Below, piece by piece: positions 3,783-20,218 of a stretch of 20,218 bases of DNA. This stretch comes from a virus. Position numbers and translations under genes: made by a program. Location of the stretch: the UHGV virus genome UHGV-1746005; one strand, 5' to 3'. The notes under the pieces are model-generated. The model did no database searches. It saw only the letters and a list, made by a program, of their open reading frames with translations, and was not told the origin of the DNA. The stretch's first letter is position 1, and each line of letters begins with the position of its first letter.

Positions 3783-4138
3783 AGCACCACGTCCTGTGTG
3801 ATAGTTATATCCCTGATACGAATGGATATTTTCAACTTATCAAAAGCATCTCCCTCGGCTACTGACAAGCCAGAAATCGGTATGTCAGGTAAATCTACCG
3901 TCAGTTTTTGCAACAGCATTGCCTCAACCGCAATTTGAACATGCGACAAGTTGGTCGGTTCGTGTTTAAACTGCGGTAAAACATTGCCCCATGACGGATC
4001 TCCGTATACCTCACCCTGATAAGTGTTTAGCCACTCATATAAACGAGCGCCCCAGGCCTCCTCCTGGGACTCATACGTTTTTACGCCGGATAACTCCAGC
4101 GTCAGCAAAGGATCAATTTCGTTATTGTTGGCCATCAA
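3779..4138 (-). CDS. Small baseplate protein, 119 aa (possible GPW/gp25-like)
   Basis: Size and motif YGDPSWGNVLPQF resemble the gp25/GPW G-x-P-x-F/W-G-x-x-L signature; start overlaps the stop of the SLT-domain gene (4135-4138). Confidence 0.5.
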   Translation of the reverse strand: MMANNNEIDPLLTLELSGVKTYESQEEAWGARLYEWLNTYQGEVYGDPSWGNVLPQFKHEPTNLSHVQIAVEAMLLQKLTVDLPDIPISGLSVAEGDAFDKLKISIRIRDITITQDVVL

Positions 4139-7100
4139 TCAACTCTCGCGTAGTCATTCATCAACGGATCATCAATTGACAGTGGCACCGTGCGCATAAC
4201 GCCCGGTTGAGGCGTGCTGACCTTTACGACAGTTCCCTGGCCTTTCGCCGAGTCTTTAGTGTGCTCTTCAATCCTGGCAAGCAATGAGGTCATCTGCGCA
4301 AACAGCCGCTTCGTTTCACCATCAAGTGAAACGGTATTATCAGCCAACTGCATTGTCGGCTTGGCACCGGAGCCGCCAAGGTCACTAATAACCTGTCCGT
4401 CTATCTGCATACGACCGGTTGGTTGCTGCAAATCGTTGGCGGCAGTCGTCACCAGGGACGTGGAGGCTGGTTCAGGCGCATTATTTTTCCGCATCCCCGG
4501 CGAGTTGCGGAGTTTATCGAATAGTCCATCAATCCCCATTTGTGCGCCGAGTTGGTCAAAGTAACTTGAGTTGCTGGCCACCGGACGCGCCTCTTCAACT
4601 GGCATCGGAGTATCAACATACACATTGCCAGCTGCTGTTGCGGTCCCCTTCCCTCGTGCACGTTCTTCGAGCGTTCCCTGAACGACTTCCCGACGCATAC
4701 CCCGGCCATTCATGAATTTGTTGACCAGATCGTTAACACCAACAGCATTGCCAATTTTGTCTACCAGACCGCCTTTCTCAAACGGGCTATCACCAGGGGT
4801 AAACGCCAGGCCAGTAGACTGATCGATAACAGCGTTATCAGGCAGCTTTTCGTGAATTGCTGGTGCGCTATGATCTACCTTAGAGCCATAAACGGCACCA
4901 TTATTGAGCATCTGCTGATACCCTCTGACACGAGTAACATATTCGCCGGTACCGGCGACTACTCTCCCCTTATCAACATGCCCCATACCAGCATGATAGG
5001 CAGCTATTGCACGACCCTGATCACCGTTATAACGGTTCATCAGCATACTTAGGTATCTGGCGGCACCATCAGCTGCTTTTCGTGTATCCATGGCATCAGC
5101 ATCGCTGAGTCCAAGATCCTCCCTTGTACCTTTAGTGATCTGAAAAGCCCCAAGGGCAGATGAAAGTTTGTTCCCGTTTTTGTCTACTGGATTTCCAGTT
5201 CTCTGGCCTGCACTAGACTCTGCGGATGCAACTGCTGACAGAATCCCTTTTTCAAGCCCATACTTACGTTCAAGCTCATCAAAATAATCGGCATTGTCAG
5301 AAATCCATTGGTATCCGGCAGCATTTAATTTTGGCAAAGAAACATCCTTGCCATTGTTAAATCGACGTTTATCTATCTCATATGCACTTAATGCTTCCTC
5401 CTTACCTGTAGCAGACTGGCCCAAGGCAGCATCAATTGTTTGTGCTGCTTTATTTCCTGTTTCTACGGCATTTGCCTTGATAATCTGATTGGCAGTTTCT
5501 TTAACTGTTTTATTGCTATCTTTCGCTGTATCTAGGGATGCATTTACAACACGAGTGACAATATTACCCTTTTTAGGGGTATATTCAGTTTTAGGAGCAT
5601 TGCCCTCCTGACGTTCTTTAGCAGGTGTTTTTAATTCAGGTTTAACCTCTTTCGCATCCGCTTTTTTGACTAGCTTTGATGCAACCCAGGCTACAGGGGT
5701 GCTCTGAACAGCGGCATCTACAACTTCACCTGAAAGCTCTTTTGCGGCACTCCATAGATTACTGCCAGCCTCTTTAATGTATTTCCCTGGGTTCTTAATG
5801 AAATCAATTGCACTATTAATTGCATCACTGAAAACCTGTTTCAGGTTATCGACAGTAAAGAAGTTTTTGATGGCGTCTAATTTTTCGTTCAGATTCTTTG
5901 TAGTGTCACTGAACCAGGCTGAAATAGCATCGCCAATCTTGGCTGTGTAATCGTTGAATGTTGTGGATATGGTGTCACCAAGGTTAGAAATATATGTTTC
6001 TAAATTGGTAATCCCACTATCAATGGCCTGGGCAATACTTTCCGTCGAAAATGATTGCAACATATTGCCGATATCCTCAAATCCAAGTGATTTGAGAACG
6101 CCACCAATGGCATTGCTAATACCAGATACCAGTCCTCCCATATCGAGAACGTTAGCCAGTGTATAAGCCGCTTTTTGCTGAAAAGATGGATCTTCCCCAT
6201 CCTTAAGCCCAAAGGTCCGACGTTGTGCTTCTGTATCATTCCAACCGGTTACCGCATCATAGATACCTCCAGCCACCGTGCCGACTAGCGGAATTGCGCG
6301 TAAAGCCCCCTTTGCAAAAGCCTTAACACCTAGTTTCTCCAATCCCTTAGTTGCAAGTTTTCCGGCACCGCGAGTAGCCAATTCGCCAGCTTCTTTGGCA
6401 GCAGCTTTTTTCCCACCAAAGCCCAATAAGCTTGCAACTTTTTTTATACCTAAAGCGCCTAGTGCCATCGAGCCAACTTTCTTTAGTGCCCCACGGCCAA
6501 AAATAAGGGAAGCAATACCACCGGCCCCCTTCCCTAACAGGCTAAATAATTTGGACAGCAAGCCGCCCTTCTTTTTCCCGGTGTTTTTGGCTATCTGATC
6601 AAGGGCGCTGAGAATCTTGTCATTGCCCTCTTTAATTTCGCTGGTCTGATCCTGAAGTTCCTGAACCGTCCGTTTTTGGGTGTTAACCTGAACGACATCG
6701 GCACTACTTTGCGATTTACGCCTAAAAAAACCTTTTCTACGGCTGTTATCGTCATTGCCACGAATCACATCGGCAATTGACTTTCTGGCACCATTAAGCG
6801 AACCGCCAACTTCTTTTGATATTCCGCCAAGCTCCTTTCCTGCTGCCCACAATGGACCAGCAACGGCATAACCTAAAGCATCGACGGCACGAGTCTCTGA
6901 AGGGTTACCTATGCCTTCAGCTACTTTTGACAGTTTTTTTAATAAACCCGATTCAGCATTTAGACGCTCATCATCCTCTTTGCGCCTGGCCTTTTCAGCA
7001 CGTTCAGCACGGGCATCTTCCGCTGCGGCCTTACTCCCTGACTTTCCAATAAAACGACCACGCGCATCGCGTTGGTTTTGGCTTTTTTGCGCACCGCCTT

Positions 7101-7812
7101 TTTGACCGAACATTTCGCGAGCGTGTTCGGCTGCTTCGGTCCGTTGCGCCTTTACATCTTCTGTTATAGCCTTCCTGCGTCTTTTTTTACCCTTTGGTGT
7201 AGTTGATTTGGCCTGCTGTTCCTGTTGAGCAATGCCCTCCTGAACTACACGAGAAACGTCCCCTAAATTAAGCCGTTTCATTGCGTCAACAATAGGGTCT
7301 ACTGATGGCGCATTGGCCACAAAGTCTGGCCGGGAATTTTCGATTGTTCGATTTAATGCCGACACACTGCGAGATACTGGGTCAACCGTTGCAACGCGTT
7401 CCCCTTTCAAATCACGAGCGAGTTTGACCGTTTCTAACCGCTGTGCTTTAACATCCTCTGTTATTGCCTCTCTTCGTCTATTTGGGGGATTGTGCGCTGT
7501 TGGTGCAGCCTGCTGTTCACGGTTAGTGACTTTGTCCTCCCGTATACGAGAAACGCCCCCTAAATTAAGCCGTTTCATTGCGTCAACAATAGAGTCCACT
7601 GATGGCGCATTGGTCACAAAGTCAGGACGTGAATTTTCGATTGTGCGATTTAATGCCGACACACTGCGAGAGACAGGATCAACTGTAGCAACTCGCCCCC
7701 CTTTCAAATCTTCAACGGCTTCCCGAATACCTGCAAGCTCTTCCAGCTCTTTTGCGCTGGCGGTTTCAACCGTCCTTATCACATCGTCAATGTTGGCGTT
7801 TTTTCTTTCCAT
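4135..7812 (-). CDS. sit: Tail tape-measure-like protein with internal lytic transglycosylase (SLT) domain, 1225 aa; resembles P1 Sit
   Basis: SLT hallmarks in residues ~835-960 (DNA about 4930-5310): catalytic-type E-S in AVASAESSAG, GAFQITKGT, AAYHAGMG. Central glycine-rich hydrophobic segments typical of tape-measure proteins; basic coiled N-terminus with a tandem internal duplication. Confidence 0.8.
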   Translation of the reverse strand: MERKNANIDDVIRTVETASAKELEELAGIREAVEDLKGGRVATVDPVSRSVSALNRTIENSRPDFVTNAPSVDSIVDAMKRLNLGGVSRIREDKVTNREQQAAPTAHNPPNRRREAITEDVKAQRLETVKLARDLKGERVATVDPVSRSVSALNRTIENSRPDFVANAPSVDPIVDAMKRLNLGDVSRVVQEGIAQQEQQAKSTTPKGKKRRRKAITEDVKAQRTEAAEHAREMFGQKGGAQKSQNQRDARGRFIGKSGSKAAAEDARAERAEKARRKEDDERLNAESGLLKKLSKVAEGIGNPSETRAVDALGYAVAGPLWAAGKELGGISKEVGGSLNGARKSIADVIRGNDDNSRRKGFFRRKSQSSADVVQVNTQKRTVQELQDQTSEIKEGNDKILSALDQIAKNTGKKKGGLLSKLFSLLGKGAGGIASLIFGRGALKKVGSMALGALGIKKVASLLGFGGKKAAAKEAGELATRGAGKLATKGLEKLGVKAFAKGALRAIPLVGTVAGGIYDAVTGWNDTEAQRRTFGLKDGEDPSFQQKAAYTLANVLDMGGLVSGISNAIGGVLKSLGFEDIGNMLQSFSTESIAQAIDSGITNLETYISNLGDTISTTFNDYTAKIGDAISAWFSDTTKNLNEKLDAIKNFFTVDNLKQVFSDAINSAIDFIKNPGKYIKEAGSNLWSAAKELSGEVVDAAVQSTPVAWVASKLVKKADAKEVKPELKTPAKERQEGNAPKTEYTPKKGNIVTRVVNASLDTAKDSNKTVKETANQIIKANAVETGNKAAQTIDAALGQSATGKEEALSAYEIDKRRFNNGKDVSLPKLNAAGYQWISDNADYFDELERKYGLEKGILSAVASAESSAGQRTGNPVDKNGNKLSSALGAFQITKGTREDLGLSDADAMDTRKAADGAARYLSMLMNRYNGDQGRAIAAYHAGMGHVDKGRVVAGTGEYVTRVRGYQQMLNNGAVYGSKVDHSAPAIHEKLPDNAVIDQSTGLAFTPGDSPFEKGGLVDKIGNAVGVNDLVNKFMNGRGMRREVVQGTLEERARGKGTATAAGNVYVDTPMPVEEARPVASNSSYFDQLGAQMGIDGLFDKLRNSPGMRKNNAPEPASTSLVTTAANDLQQPTGRMQIDGQVISDLGGSGAKPTMQLADNTVSLDGETKRLFAQMTSLLARIEEHTKDSAKGQGTVVKVSTPQPGVMRTVPLSIDDPLMNDYARVD
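7150..7743 (-). repeat. Tandem in-frame duplication (2 x ~297 bp, 99 codons) inside the N-terminal region of the SLT/tape-measure gene
   Basis: Near-identical blocks at ~7211-7413 and ~7508-7710 (e.g. CCCCTAAATTAAGCCGTTTCATTGCGTCAACAATAG...), with weaker similarity extending to ~7150 and ~7743. Protein repeats: KGGRVATVDPVSRSVSALNRTIENSRPDFV(T/A)NAPSVD(S/P)IVDAMKRLNLG. Confidence 0.85.
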
Positions 7813-11444: not shown

Positions 11445-11540
11445 TATAACCTCACCTGCCTTATAACTCATTTAGGGTACATATTTTCGCCTTTAAAAAA
11501 AAGAGGTTATTAGATCCAACTGTGTATTTATTAAACAAAT

Positions 11541-11557
11541 AATGCTCTAATAAATTT
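11541..11557 (+). promoter_or_regulatory. C1-repressor-operator-like 17-mer (AATGCTCTAATAAATTT) upstream of the immunity-operon promoter
   Basis: 16/17 match to the P1 C1 operator consensus ATTGCTCTAATAAATTT (recalled from the literature); a second near-identical copy is at 13212-13228, with similarity extending ~20 bp further (TTTT(T/C)TAAGT...GAAT). Confidence 0.6.
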
Positions 11558-11595
11558 GTATTTTTAAGTCGCGAATGCTATCTTTTCGCATCATA

Positions 11596-11624
11596 TTGAC
11601 CTTTTAATCGTTCAGGCTTATAGT
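11596..11624 (+). promoter_or_regulatory. Sigma70-type promoter for the leader/icd/ant transcript (-35 TTGACC, 17-bp spacer, -10 TATAGT)
   Basis: -35 at 11596-11601 and -10 at 11619-11624 with optimal spacing; ~40 bp downstream of the operator-like 17-mer and ~240 bp upstream of the Icd-like start. Confidence 0.45.
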
Positions 11625-11699
11625 TCCACCGTCGTAGCAAATTCTGCGACCGGGTTTGACAGCCTGAATGTTAGTGCGGACAACCGCAGATTTCCGATA

Positions 11700-11815
11700 T
11701 TGCGGTATTTTTGTGTCCGTAAACCGCGTTACGCCCGAATTATGGTGGGGCGTGATGGGGAGGCTTCGGCCTGCTGGTTTCACTAACGCCAGTCTGTCAA
11801 CCCTGTCACGTCCTG
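11700..11815 (+). ncRNA. Candidate c4/CI-type antisense regulatory RNA within the leader (boundaries approximate)
   Basis: Structured GC-rich leader: hairpin ACGCCC...GGGCGT (11731-11753), UUCG-tetraloop hairpin AGGC-TTCG-GCCT (11761-11772), and tandem CTGTCA elements (11794-11799, 11803-11808) complementary to TTGACAG copies at 11655-11661 and 11823-11829. Confidence 0.3.
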
Positions 11816-11870
11816 CCACCTGTTTGACAGCGGGTAGCAGGTTGTTAAACCTGTTAGTGAGGCCGTAACT

Positions 11871-12092
11871 ATGGTTAATGCCAATCCTTGCACACGCCCA
11901 GAATTCATCTGGCGTTTCTATTCCTGTAAAAAACACCACTATCACTTCGTTATCGCAGCAACTGAAGACGAAGCACGCTCTCAATTGCCTGATGGCCCCT
12001 GCATTTTTACTGCCCGTTTTTCTACTAACTCGCGCAATTCACTTAGTTACTGGAACCTCCCCTTCTCTGCCGACGTTCAGGGGGGTTTATGA
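11871..12092 (+). CDS. icd: Icd-like / Ash-family small protein (73 aa)
   Basis: 73-codon ORF with SD GAGG; motif ...EFIWRFY...FVIAATEDEARSQL... resembles Icd-like proteins; sits between the structured leader and the antirepressor gene as in P1 immI (recalled). Confidence 0.55.
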   Translation: MVNANPCTRPEFIWRFYSCKKHHYHFVIAATEDEARSQLPDGPCIFTARFSTNSRNSLSYWNLPFSADVQGGL

Positions 12093-12152
12093 AAAAAACC
12101 TCTCGTCACCCGTAATGAAATAGCCGAAGCGATCGCTTTGCATACTGCCTGT

Positions 12153-13133
12153 ATGCCGACACGGGAGATCCCCGGCGCAATTGCTAACTATTTCATGATA
12201 ACCAGGCGTTTTTATACCCGAACAGATAAGGCTGTGATCAACAGGCTACTGATAGCCGAGATCAGGGATTATTTGATTGAACAAGGACGTCTACGTTACG
12301 CAACAGTGGCAGCAGAAATAAGAAAGGAGGCACATAGAATGACCGGTAATAATTTGAATGTTGAAAAAACAGCACCTGTTACGTCAGCTACGCCAGCACC
12401 AGCCGTGAATATCATCCCCAACACCGGAGACACAATCGACAGCCAAACATTGTTGAAGATGGTCAATGAGGCACGCAAGTTATGTGGAGAACCAGAGGTT
12501 AGAAACAATAAATTCATCGAAAAAATACTCGATGAACTTGAAGGTGAATTTTACACAAAAAGTGCAAAATCCCATGGCACAAGGGCTGGGCGCTCTTTTG
12601 AGGTCATCACCATGACCTACAAACAAGCCCTGCGAGTCGCCGCGCGCGAGTCAAAAGCGGTCCGCCGTTCGCTGATCGACAAACTGGAAGAATTGCAGCA
12701 GGCAAACTCCCCTGCCCCATCGATCCCCCAAACATTACCAGAAGCTCTACGCCTGGCTGCCGAGTTGGCAGAACAGAAAATGCAGCTGGAACAACAGCTG
12801 GTGGCCGCAGCCCCTAAAGTCGATTTTGCCGACCGGGTATCAGTGGCTAATGGAATCCTGATCGGGAACTTTGCAAAGGTCGTTGGACTTAAGCAAAACG
12901 CCCTTTTCTCATGGTTGCGCCAGAACGGCATTCTCATGGCTTTTGGTGCGCGCAAAAACGTACCGCGCCAGCAGTACATTAACGCCGGGTATTTCACGGT
13001 GAAAGAAGTGGTGCTGGATGATGAAAATGGCTACCAGATACGGCTGACGCCCCAATTAACGGGTAAAGGCCAGCAGTGGTTAACTCGCAAGCTACTTGAT
13101 GCTGGTTTGTTAAAACCAGTAGCAATAGGTTAA
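12153..13133 (+). CDS. ant1: Phage antirepressor with C-terminal KilAC (ANT) domain; long form 326 aa from ATG 12153, nested in-frame short form 264 aa from ATG 12339
   Basis: C-terminal PQTLPEALRLAAELAEQK...NFAKVVGLKQNALFSWLRQNGIL...GYFTVKEV...LTGKGQQWL matches the KilAC domain and is paralogous to the C-terminus of the next gene. The internal ATG at 12339 has a very strong SD (AAGGAGG); the upstream in-frame part has no obvious SD. Confidence 0.7.
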   Translation: MPTREIPGAIANYFMITRRFYTRTDKAVINRLLIAEIRDYLIEQGRLRYATVAAEIRKEAHRMTGNNLNVEKTAPVTSATPAPAVNIIPNTGDTIDSQTLLKMVNEARKLCGEPEVRNNKFIEKILDELEGEFYTKSAKSHGTRAGRSFEVITMTYKQALRVAARESKAVRRSLIDKLEELQQANSPAPSIPQTLPEALRLAAELAEQKMQLEQQLVAAAPKVDFADRVSVANGILIGNFAKVVGLKQNALFSWLRQNGILMAFGARKNVPRQQYINAGYFTVKEVVLDDENGYQIRLTPQLTGKGQQWLTRKLLDAGLLKPVAIG

Positions 13134-20091: not shown

Positions 20092-20218
20092 AATAATCGG
20101 GAACTTCGCATCATCCGGAACAGCACGGACAACATAACCAGACGTTTGCTGAATAGCTTCGTAGGCACTGTTGCAAAGTTAGCGATGAGGCAGCCTTTTG
20201 TCTTATTCAAAGGCCTTA

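Follow-up and report, generated by a model that had tools for sequence, protein, structure and literature searches.

A c4 antisense-RNA locus of the phage P1 type and the covariation of its two antisense segments with their targets

Organization of the window and the immI locus

The whole stretch of DNA analyzed here (the window) has 20,218 bases. It is 97.7% identical to phage P1 (AF234172, positions 37168–56760) over 92% of its length, and the closest records to the whole window are E. coli plasmids, at approximately 99% identity. Judging from these matches, the window is part of a P1-type phage-plasmid, and the stretch flagged in an earlier note on this DNA lies within immI. The minus-strand genes R, 16, bplA, pmgA, sit, pmgB, tub, pmgC, and simCBA, placed by comparison with P1, are followed by c4, icd, ant1/2, kilA, repL, and rlfAB on the plus strand and then by pmgF, bplB, pmgG, 21, and 22, all in the P1 gene order. 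The immI segment (11560–12140) is 99.7% identical to that of P1, and the alignment of 11530–11900 with P1 has a single base difference, G11654. The best-matching E. coli RefSeq plasmids agree with 11540–12400 completely save one base, the extra A of ant1 described later. The c4/icd-ant locus is found in 569 of 5426 complete E. coli genomes (approximately one in ten) and is nearly always plasmid-borne.

P1 features were moved onto the window through the alignment, a window coordinate being the L001 coordinate + 10059. The P1 record annotates Oc4, P2c4, P1c4, a1, b1, c4, a2, b2, icd, and ant1/2 at positions matching those given below, all of which are on the plus strand. For comparison, viral contigs were scanned for the exact 20-nt c4 core, which gave at least 120 loci, a sample biased by the exact-core requirement. 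Adding the window and the P1, P7, D6, and RCS47 records gives 117 copies with full flanks among the matches listed. The 117 copies represent 52 distinct 280-nt sequences (aligned to window 11612–11891), and the formal counts were made on 51 of them.

Operator, promoters, and leader

The locus begins with the C1 repressor operator Oc4 (formerly Op51; AATGCTCTAATAAATTT, 11541–11557), which is taken over from the P1 annotation and is identical to that of P1. The operator overlaps the promoter P2c4 (formerly P51a, 11556–11584), also annotated in P1 and identical in sequence. The second promoter, P1c4 (formerly P51b, 11596–11624), consists of TTGACC (−35, 11596–11601) and TATAGT (−10, 11619–11624) separated by 17 nt. 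It agrees with the consensus at 10 of 12 positions in the consensus scan, and the near-consensus promoter proposed earlier at these positions therefore coincides with an annotated P1 promoter. P51b is constitutive, and P51a is under C1 control.

The leader module containing a1 and b1 occupies 11631–11712, as delimited by the Rfam c4-a1b1 and isrK matches. Two hairpins (11631–11650 and 11651–11666) form its 5' part. The a1 target, UUGACAG (11656–11662), is located in the loop of the second hairpin, and the b1 target, GUUAGUG(C) (11670–11677), in the linker. Both targets are annotated in P1 and covary with the antisense segments a' and b' of c4, respectively, as described later, though the upstream a1/b1 copy is still labeled 'putative' in the P1 record. 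A terminator-like hairpin of 6 bp (11683–11688 paired with 11701–11706) and a U-run (11708–11712) follow. A smaller hairpin of 4 bp (11676–11687) overlaps both the end of b1 and the 5' strand of the terminator-like hairpin. In the 51 sequences, 99.5% of the pairs of the two 5' hairpins are formed, and four of these pairs are changed on both sides. The 251-nt leader folds at −108.8 kcal/mol with z = −6.05 against shuffles, so that the structured leader expected in the earlier note is borne out by folding.

The decamer GTTTGACAGC, given in that note as a repeated target, occurs exactly twice in the 20,218 bases, at 11654–11663 and 11822–11831. Shuffles lead one to expect 0.03 matches, and two matches were obtained in none of 100 shuffles. 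The second copy ends 41 nt before the ATG of icd at 11871, in agreement with the distance of approximately 40 nt that had been claimed.

The base at 11654 should be noted. It is G in the window, in P7, and in 50 of the 51 relatives, and T in the laboratory P1 records AF234172 and OP279344. Since G11654 pairs with C11663 to complete the stem of the a1 hairpin, laboratory P1 is the odd one out. For P1vir, a substitution 'near the C4 binding site' has been published.

The c4 RNA and its antisense segments

The c4 RNA itself (77 nt, 11744–11820) is located by the Rfam C4 match, the P1 misc_RNA annotation, and the fold. The C4 model (RF01695) aligns over its full length (1–87 of 87) with 11738–11823 at 68.8 bits, against a gathering cut-off of 45, and c4-a1b1 (RF03163) matches 11618–11670 at 57 bits, against a cut-off of 46.7. 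A c4-type antisense RNA in the icd-ant leader had been predicted from the sequence, with a covariance-model search as one check. Both models score above their cut-offs, and the P1 annotation and the near-identity of immI with P1 agree with the prediction.

The c4 RNA folds at −42 kcal/mol (z = −4.55, likewise beyond shuffles), and the minimum free energy and centroid structures are the same. Three helices make up the fold. A stem of 17 bp closes the molecule, a hairpin of 4 bp carries the UUCG tetraloop noticed before (AGGC-UUCG-GCCU, 11761–11772), and a second hairpin, of 6 bp, has a loop of 9 nt and is separated from the closing stem by seven unpaired bases. The 27 pairs of c4 are formed in 100% of 1377 cells (pairs in sequences), that is, in all 51 distinct relatives, and because the closing stem hardly varies, the covariation evidence for the fold is weak.

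Two segments, both unpaired in the fold, face the targets. The loop of the second hairpin contains the b' segment, CACUAAC (11781–11787), which is the exact complement of b1 and b2 and covaries with them. The a' segment, CUGUCAA (11794–11800), is the single strand that joins the second hairpin to the closing stem, and it covaries with a1 and a2. Each has its exact complement twice, UUGACAG at a1 and a2, and GUUAGUG (GTTAGTG on the plus strand) at b1 (11670) and b2 (11853); the b set was absent from the earlier note. The arithmetic chance of a given 7-mer is approximately 0.007 in the 113 nt upstream and approximately 0.004 in the 60 nt downstream, and the chance that both segments would have both copies is therefore negligible.

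The wiring proposed before was different. In CTGTCAACCCTGTCAC, which is indeed present at 11794–11809, two tandem CUGUCA units (11794–11799 and 11803–11808) were each assigned to one UUGACAG, so that a single RNA would bridge both targets. Both units are literally complementary to UGACAG, and the isolated duplex of the second unit with a2 is calculated at −6.3 kcal/mol, against −7.3 kcal/mol for a' with a2. The first unit stands as an antisense segment, namely a'. The second, however, is paired in the fold as part of the 3' strand of the closing stem and does not covary with a2. Against a2, 83% of 306 cells are paired and two cells are changed on both sides, which 100 of 500 shuffles also reach, and two positions are unpaired in 29 and 23 of the 51 sequences. 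The only variable base of this unit, T11804, is C in 29 of the 51, and the corresponding stem pair is G-C in those 29 and G-U in 22. P7-type elements combine UUAGCAG targets with a second unit that reads CCGUCA. Moreover, the tandem arrangement leaves the perfectly covarying b1/b'/b2 set unexplained. We rejected the tandem-unit pairing, which on the 51 sequences is no better than shuffles, and regard such bridging as very improbable.

The more extended pairing described for the first target, approximately 13 bp with one bulge and one mismatch, is real as a calculated duplex (RNAduplex, −19.5 kcal/mol for the a1 region; −13.1 kcal/mol against the a2 region). Six of the 13 pairs use bases inside the stems of c4 itself, and one of the pairs (11652–11803) is A·C in 17 of the 51 relatives.

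c4 is a textbook regulatory RNA, first described in 1990. Before that year the region was viewed as encoding a small protein repressor, and a 66-aa ORF initiated by ATG (11668–11868) is open in the window; GenBank X15639 still carries 'c4: CDS'. Among the 51 distinct relatives, however, the length and frame of this ORF are kept in just 18; 28 have a length change of 1 or 2 nt, 25 are interrupted by an internal stop codon, and in several the ATG is replaced by ATA. No NCBIfam family matched the ORF. The variable positions are compensatory RNA pairs and not synonymous sites, and published work has shown c4 to be an RNA (cited in PMC8198154 and PMC5320573). Since it is disrupted in most of the 51 relatives and matches no family, the ORF was rejected as the c4 gene; a protein repressor encoded here is hardly conceivable.

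Targets a2 and b2, icd, and ant

Downstream of c4, the a2 target, UUGACAG (11824–11830), and the b2 target, GUUAGUG(A) (11853–11860), are annotated in P1 and covary with c4, b2 being evident from the sequence as well. The position of b2 should be noted. Its 7-mer (11853–11859) runs into the icd Shine-Dalgarno sequence GAGG (11859–11862), 8 nt before the ATG. Because b2 reaches the ribosome-binding site of icd, it is the part that would explain a translational block.

The icd gene (11871–12092), recognized from the ORF list, its translation, NCBIfam, and the P1 annotation, encodes a cell-division inhibitor of 73 aa. Icd matches NCBIfam phage_ICD_like at 52.6 bits, against a cut-off of 25; a search of Pfam with Icd gave no family. 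The stop codon of icd overlaps the start of ant1 in ATGA (12089–12092). The ant1/ant2 antirepressor gene (12089–13133) is assigned from the alignment with P1, P7, and RCS47, from its translation, and from Pfam, in which the ORF matches the ANT/KilAC domain at 106.6 bits.

The start of ant1, ATGAAAAAAACC (12089–12098), has a run of seven A (12092–12098), against six in P1, P7, and RCS47. Translation of the window from the P1 start gives MKKTSRHP followed by a stop, frameshifted by the extra A. Among the matches listed, the seven-A form is found in none of 124 loci, and the six-A form in 32. The start of ant2 (ATG at 12339) is intact, and in-frame ATGs at 12153 and 12195 also remain. The extra A is either a sequencing error in the homopolymer or a frameshift private to this element, by which Ant1 would be uncoupled from icd. 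If the base is real, the switch in this element would govern icd but not a normally coupled Ant1.

Covariation of c4 with both sets of targets

The pairing of a' with a2 and of b' with b2 is complete in the 51 sequences (100% of 714 cells), and 8 of the 14 pairs, corresponding to 175 cells, are changed on both sides. None of 500 shuffles reaches this result, and slid registers pair at 27–51%. Upstream, a1 with a' and b1 with b' likewise give 100% of 714 cells paired, and two-sided changes affect 8 of the 14 pairs, in 175 cells; again none of 500 shuffles reaches the result, and slid registers pair at 27–40%. Taken separately, a1 pairs with a' in all 51 distinct relatives and covaries with it, and b1 pairs with b' in all 51, with 6 of its 7 pairs changed on both sides. 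Since a1 and b1 covary with c4 as strictly as a2 and b2 do, the upstream copy is under selection.

Between P1 and P7, each of a1, a', and a2 has exactly two base differences, as has each of b1, b', and b2, and the differences always compensate. Among the 117 copies in the matches listed, the variable positions form three blocks that change together. The three copies of a and of b agree throughout, save one G·U in b1 of L063. The a alleles among the matches listed are UUGACAG (P1), UUAGCAG (P7), and UUAGUCG (L063). The b alleles, at least eight, include GUUAGUG (P1), GAUUGUG (P7), and ACUUACG (D6), in addition to ACGAAUG, GUACAUG, ACUUGUG, GUUCAAG, and AUCAAUA. With three a and at least eight b alleles, at least 13 a × b combinations are found in the 117 copies among the matches listed. 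L063 and L105, the two relatives that diverge most, have alleles of their own in an otherwise complete layout, and b2 is beside the Shine-Dalgarno sequence in both.

These combinations suggest that immI specificity in P1-like elements would be modular and that the immunity types would greatly outnumber the two classical ones of P1 and P7. A list of immI specificities other than those of P1 and P7 was looked for in the open-access literature and not found.

The long-range pairing in the minimum free energy fold of the whole leader gives a different result. It joins 11653–11666 with 11838–11851 (14 bp), the latter in the spacer between a2 and b2, and was rejected as no better than shuffles. In the 51 sequences 97.3% of its cells pair, and the helix is broken in D6-type sequences; the GA/AG swap between P1 and P7 is tolerated because the partners are UU, which can wobble.

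Assignment of the element and comparison with P7 and P4

The phage P1 c4/immI operon (AF234172, 48140–49731) is essentially the same sequence as the window element, and all of its parts match. The differences are G at 11654 and the extra A at the start of ant1 and, in the surroundings of immI, the sit gene, the tail-fiber end, and the IS26 end of the element in the window. All the sequence- and fold-based features that define the C4 family are present, as is the operon context of the family, an icd-antirepressor leader downstream of a C1-controlled promoter. On these grounds, we consider the stretch to be P1's own c4 antisense-RNA switch, which silences the antirepressor in lysogeny, with a probability of roughly 0.96, and none of the results speaks against this assignment. 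Since the element carries the a and b alleles of P1 itself, it is, by its alleles, the known c4 locus of P1 and not a new member of C4, and its immI specificity would be that of classical P1.

The c4 of phage P7 (AF503408) has the same architecture and the same RNA scaffold, but its a is UUAGCAG and its b is GAUUGUG, and a' and b' are altered correspondingly. The layout shared with the P4 CI system, to which the element had also been likened, is retained in part. By description, P4 CI is an RNA processed from an untranslated leader, and a segment inside it (seqB) pairs with an upstream and a downstream copy of its target on the same transcript, in the order seqA-CI-seqC; it differs in acting by premature transcription termination and on the P4 replication genes, not on icd-ant (PMC4825925). 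The best Rfam family for the window element is C4, and the downstream genes are icd and ant rather than P4 genes. The element is hence not filed under P4 CI, which may be regarded as an analogue in layout only.

A c4-type element can accordingly be recognized by a reader who has the sequence alone. The value added here lies in the corrected wiring, with two different antisense segments and b2 on the ribosome-binding site, and in a clean comparative demonstration of the three-way covariation. The number of a × b combinations and the IsrK-like a1/b1 leader described below are potentially of interest to specialists in phage-plasmids.

Proposed mechanism and the possibility of attenuation

Transcription from P51a, overlapped by the C1 operator, and from P51b would run via the structured leader into icd and ant, and the 77-nt c4 would be cut out of the leader transcript. 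In the folded c4, b' in its hairpin loop and the single-stranded a' would be exposed and would pair with a2 and b2 of a transcript of this type. The targets occur once more, as a1/b1, upstream of c4. Since b2 runs into the Shine-Dalgarno sequence, icd would not be translated. Since ant1 starts on the stop codon of icd and needs icd translation, no antirepressor would then be made, and lysogeny and immunity would hold. Biere et al. are said to have found in 1992 that, when icd is untranslated, transcription is prematurely terminated as well.

Several of these steps are described in the literature on P1. RNase P releases c4 from its precursor at the GGU that opens the closing stem, b' occludes the ribosome-binding site while a' binds the upstream sequence and adds specificity, expression of ant requires expression of icd, and Ant antagonizes the C1 repressor (PMC5320573, PMC8198154, PMC12197685). 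The four bases by which P1 and P7 differ prevent cross-reaction and make the two phages heteroimmune (PMC5320573). The primary work (Citron and Schuster 1990/1992, Hartmann 1995, Heinrich 1994-95) is summarized in PMC5320573 and PMC8198154. In the window, GGU is found at 11744–11746, and the sequence is identical to that of the processed RNA of P1. From the identity with P1, we infer that the element represses icd/ant and confers immI-specific immunity.

A different emphasis would make the element mainly an attenuator of the P4 CI type, in which c4 bound at a1/b1 (and a2/b2) terminates transcription instead of blocking the ribosome-binding site. The layout matches seqA-CI-seqC, and between a1/b1 and c4 there is a hairpin with a U-run (11683–11712) that the Rfam isrK alignment models as a terminator. 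This hairpin is kept with different stems in the divergent relatives L105 and L063, the small hairpin at 11676–11687 overlaps the end of b1 and competes with b1, and the strict covariation of a1/b1 points in the same direction. However, the terminator-like stem has just 6 bp and a 12-nt loop, and it is invariant within the P1 group, so that its comparative support is thin. The position of b2 directly on the icd Shine-Dalgarno sequence, here and in L063 and L105, fits a translational block, and translational repression is what the P1 literature describes (PMC5320573, PMC12197685). Attenuation as the main mode of action is thus unlikely; termination could be a layer added to the translational block rather than an alternative to it.

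Likeness of the a1/b1 leader to IsrK

With a relaxed threshold, the whole Rfam isrK model (RF01394) aligns to 11631–11712 at 44.5 bits, below its cut-off of 50; the E value, for a search of 161 nt, is 6e-9. The alignment spans the expected start of the P51b transcript, the two 5' hairpins, b1, and the hairpin modeled as a terminator with its U-run. An isrK match directly upstream of C4 is also found in P7, D6, and L105, at 51.3 bits and above the cut-off in L105. The module at 11631–11712 is therefore treated as homologous to isrK and is not filed as a member.

The terminator-like hairpin and U-run, with their short stem and wide loop, would make a weak terminator. The consensus terminator scan of the window did not call the hairpin at 11683–11712, because the loop has 12 nt. 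L105 and L063 keep the hairpin and the U-run with different stems, with an A-U to U-A swap and with CCACC/GGTGG plus U7, respectively.

The isrK model comprises two hairpins at the 5' end, a linker, and a hairpin with a U-run treated as a terminator, and the leader in the window aligns with all of these parts. In the IsrK/STnc1160/orf45-anrP region of Gifsy-1, short IsrK arises by termination, and read-through gives an mRNA containing a processed RNA of approximately 80 nt and, beyond it, a small ORF that shares AUGA, as its stop, with the start of the antirepressor gene (PMC4825925). The downstream RNA of approximately 80 nt and the AUGA overlap of small ORF and antirepressor thus have parallels in the window. 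The difference is that the short, terminated IsrK activates translation in trans, a role that is not established for the P1 leader. The authors of the IsrK work liken IsrK to seqA of P4 and do not mention P1 c4 (PMC4825925).

This likeness raises the tentative and somewhat doubtful possibility that the a1/b1 leader is an IsrK-type module with a role of its own, either as a decoy that titrates c4 or as a c4-dependent attenuator. As a decoy, a short RNA starting at P51b and terminated at approximately 11712 would titrate c4 as an anti-antisense RNA and help to turn icd-ant on. As an attenuator, the leader would respond to c4 bound at b1, which would open the 11676–11687 hairpin and favor the terminator at 11683–11706.

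Features of the element outside immI

Several relatives have two c4-type loci per contig or genome (L017/L052, L055/L064, and L014/L077), as do the phage records JL22, RCS47, D6, and Ro157c2YLVW; the window has one. Two such loci were likewise noted for a D6-like plasmid (PMC6799933).

The sit gene (4135–7812) has an ORF of 1225 aa in the window and of 1140 aa in P1. The segment at 4846–5450 has no blastn match to P1, and that at 5451–7413 is merely 84.6% identical, while the flanks are 97–98% identical. The central part of sit, especially 4846–7413, looks like a mosaic replacement.

At the left end, positions 1–314 are not P1-like, and only 126–271 can be aligned, at 75.5% identity. This segment is at the 3' end of the tail-fiber gene S region and probably represents a different tail-fiber variant. 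At the right end, the last 56–59 bases (20160–20218) match the end of IS26/IS15, which is found in thousands of plasmids. The P1 homology breaks off at 20163. This position is within gene 22 (tail sheath, minus strand), the 5' end of which is therefore cut off. With a tail-sheath gene truncated by IS26, the element may be a defective phage-plasmid.
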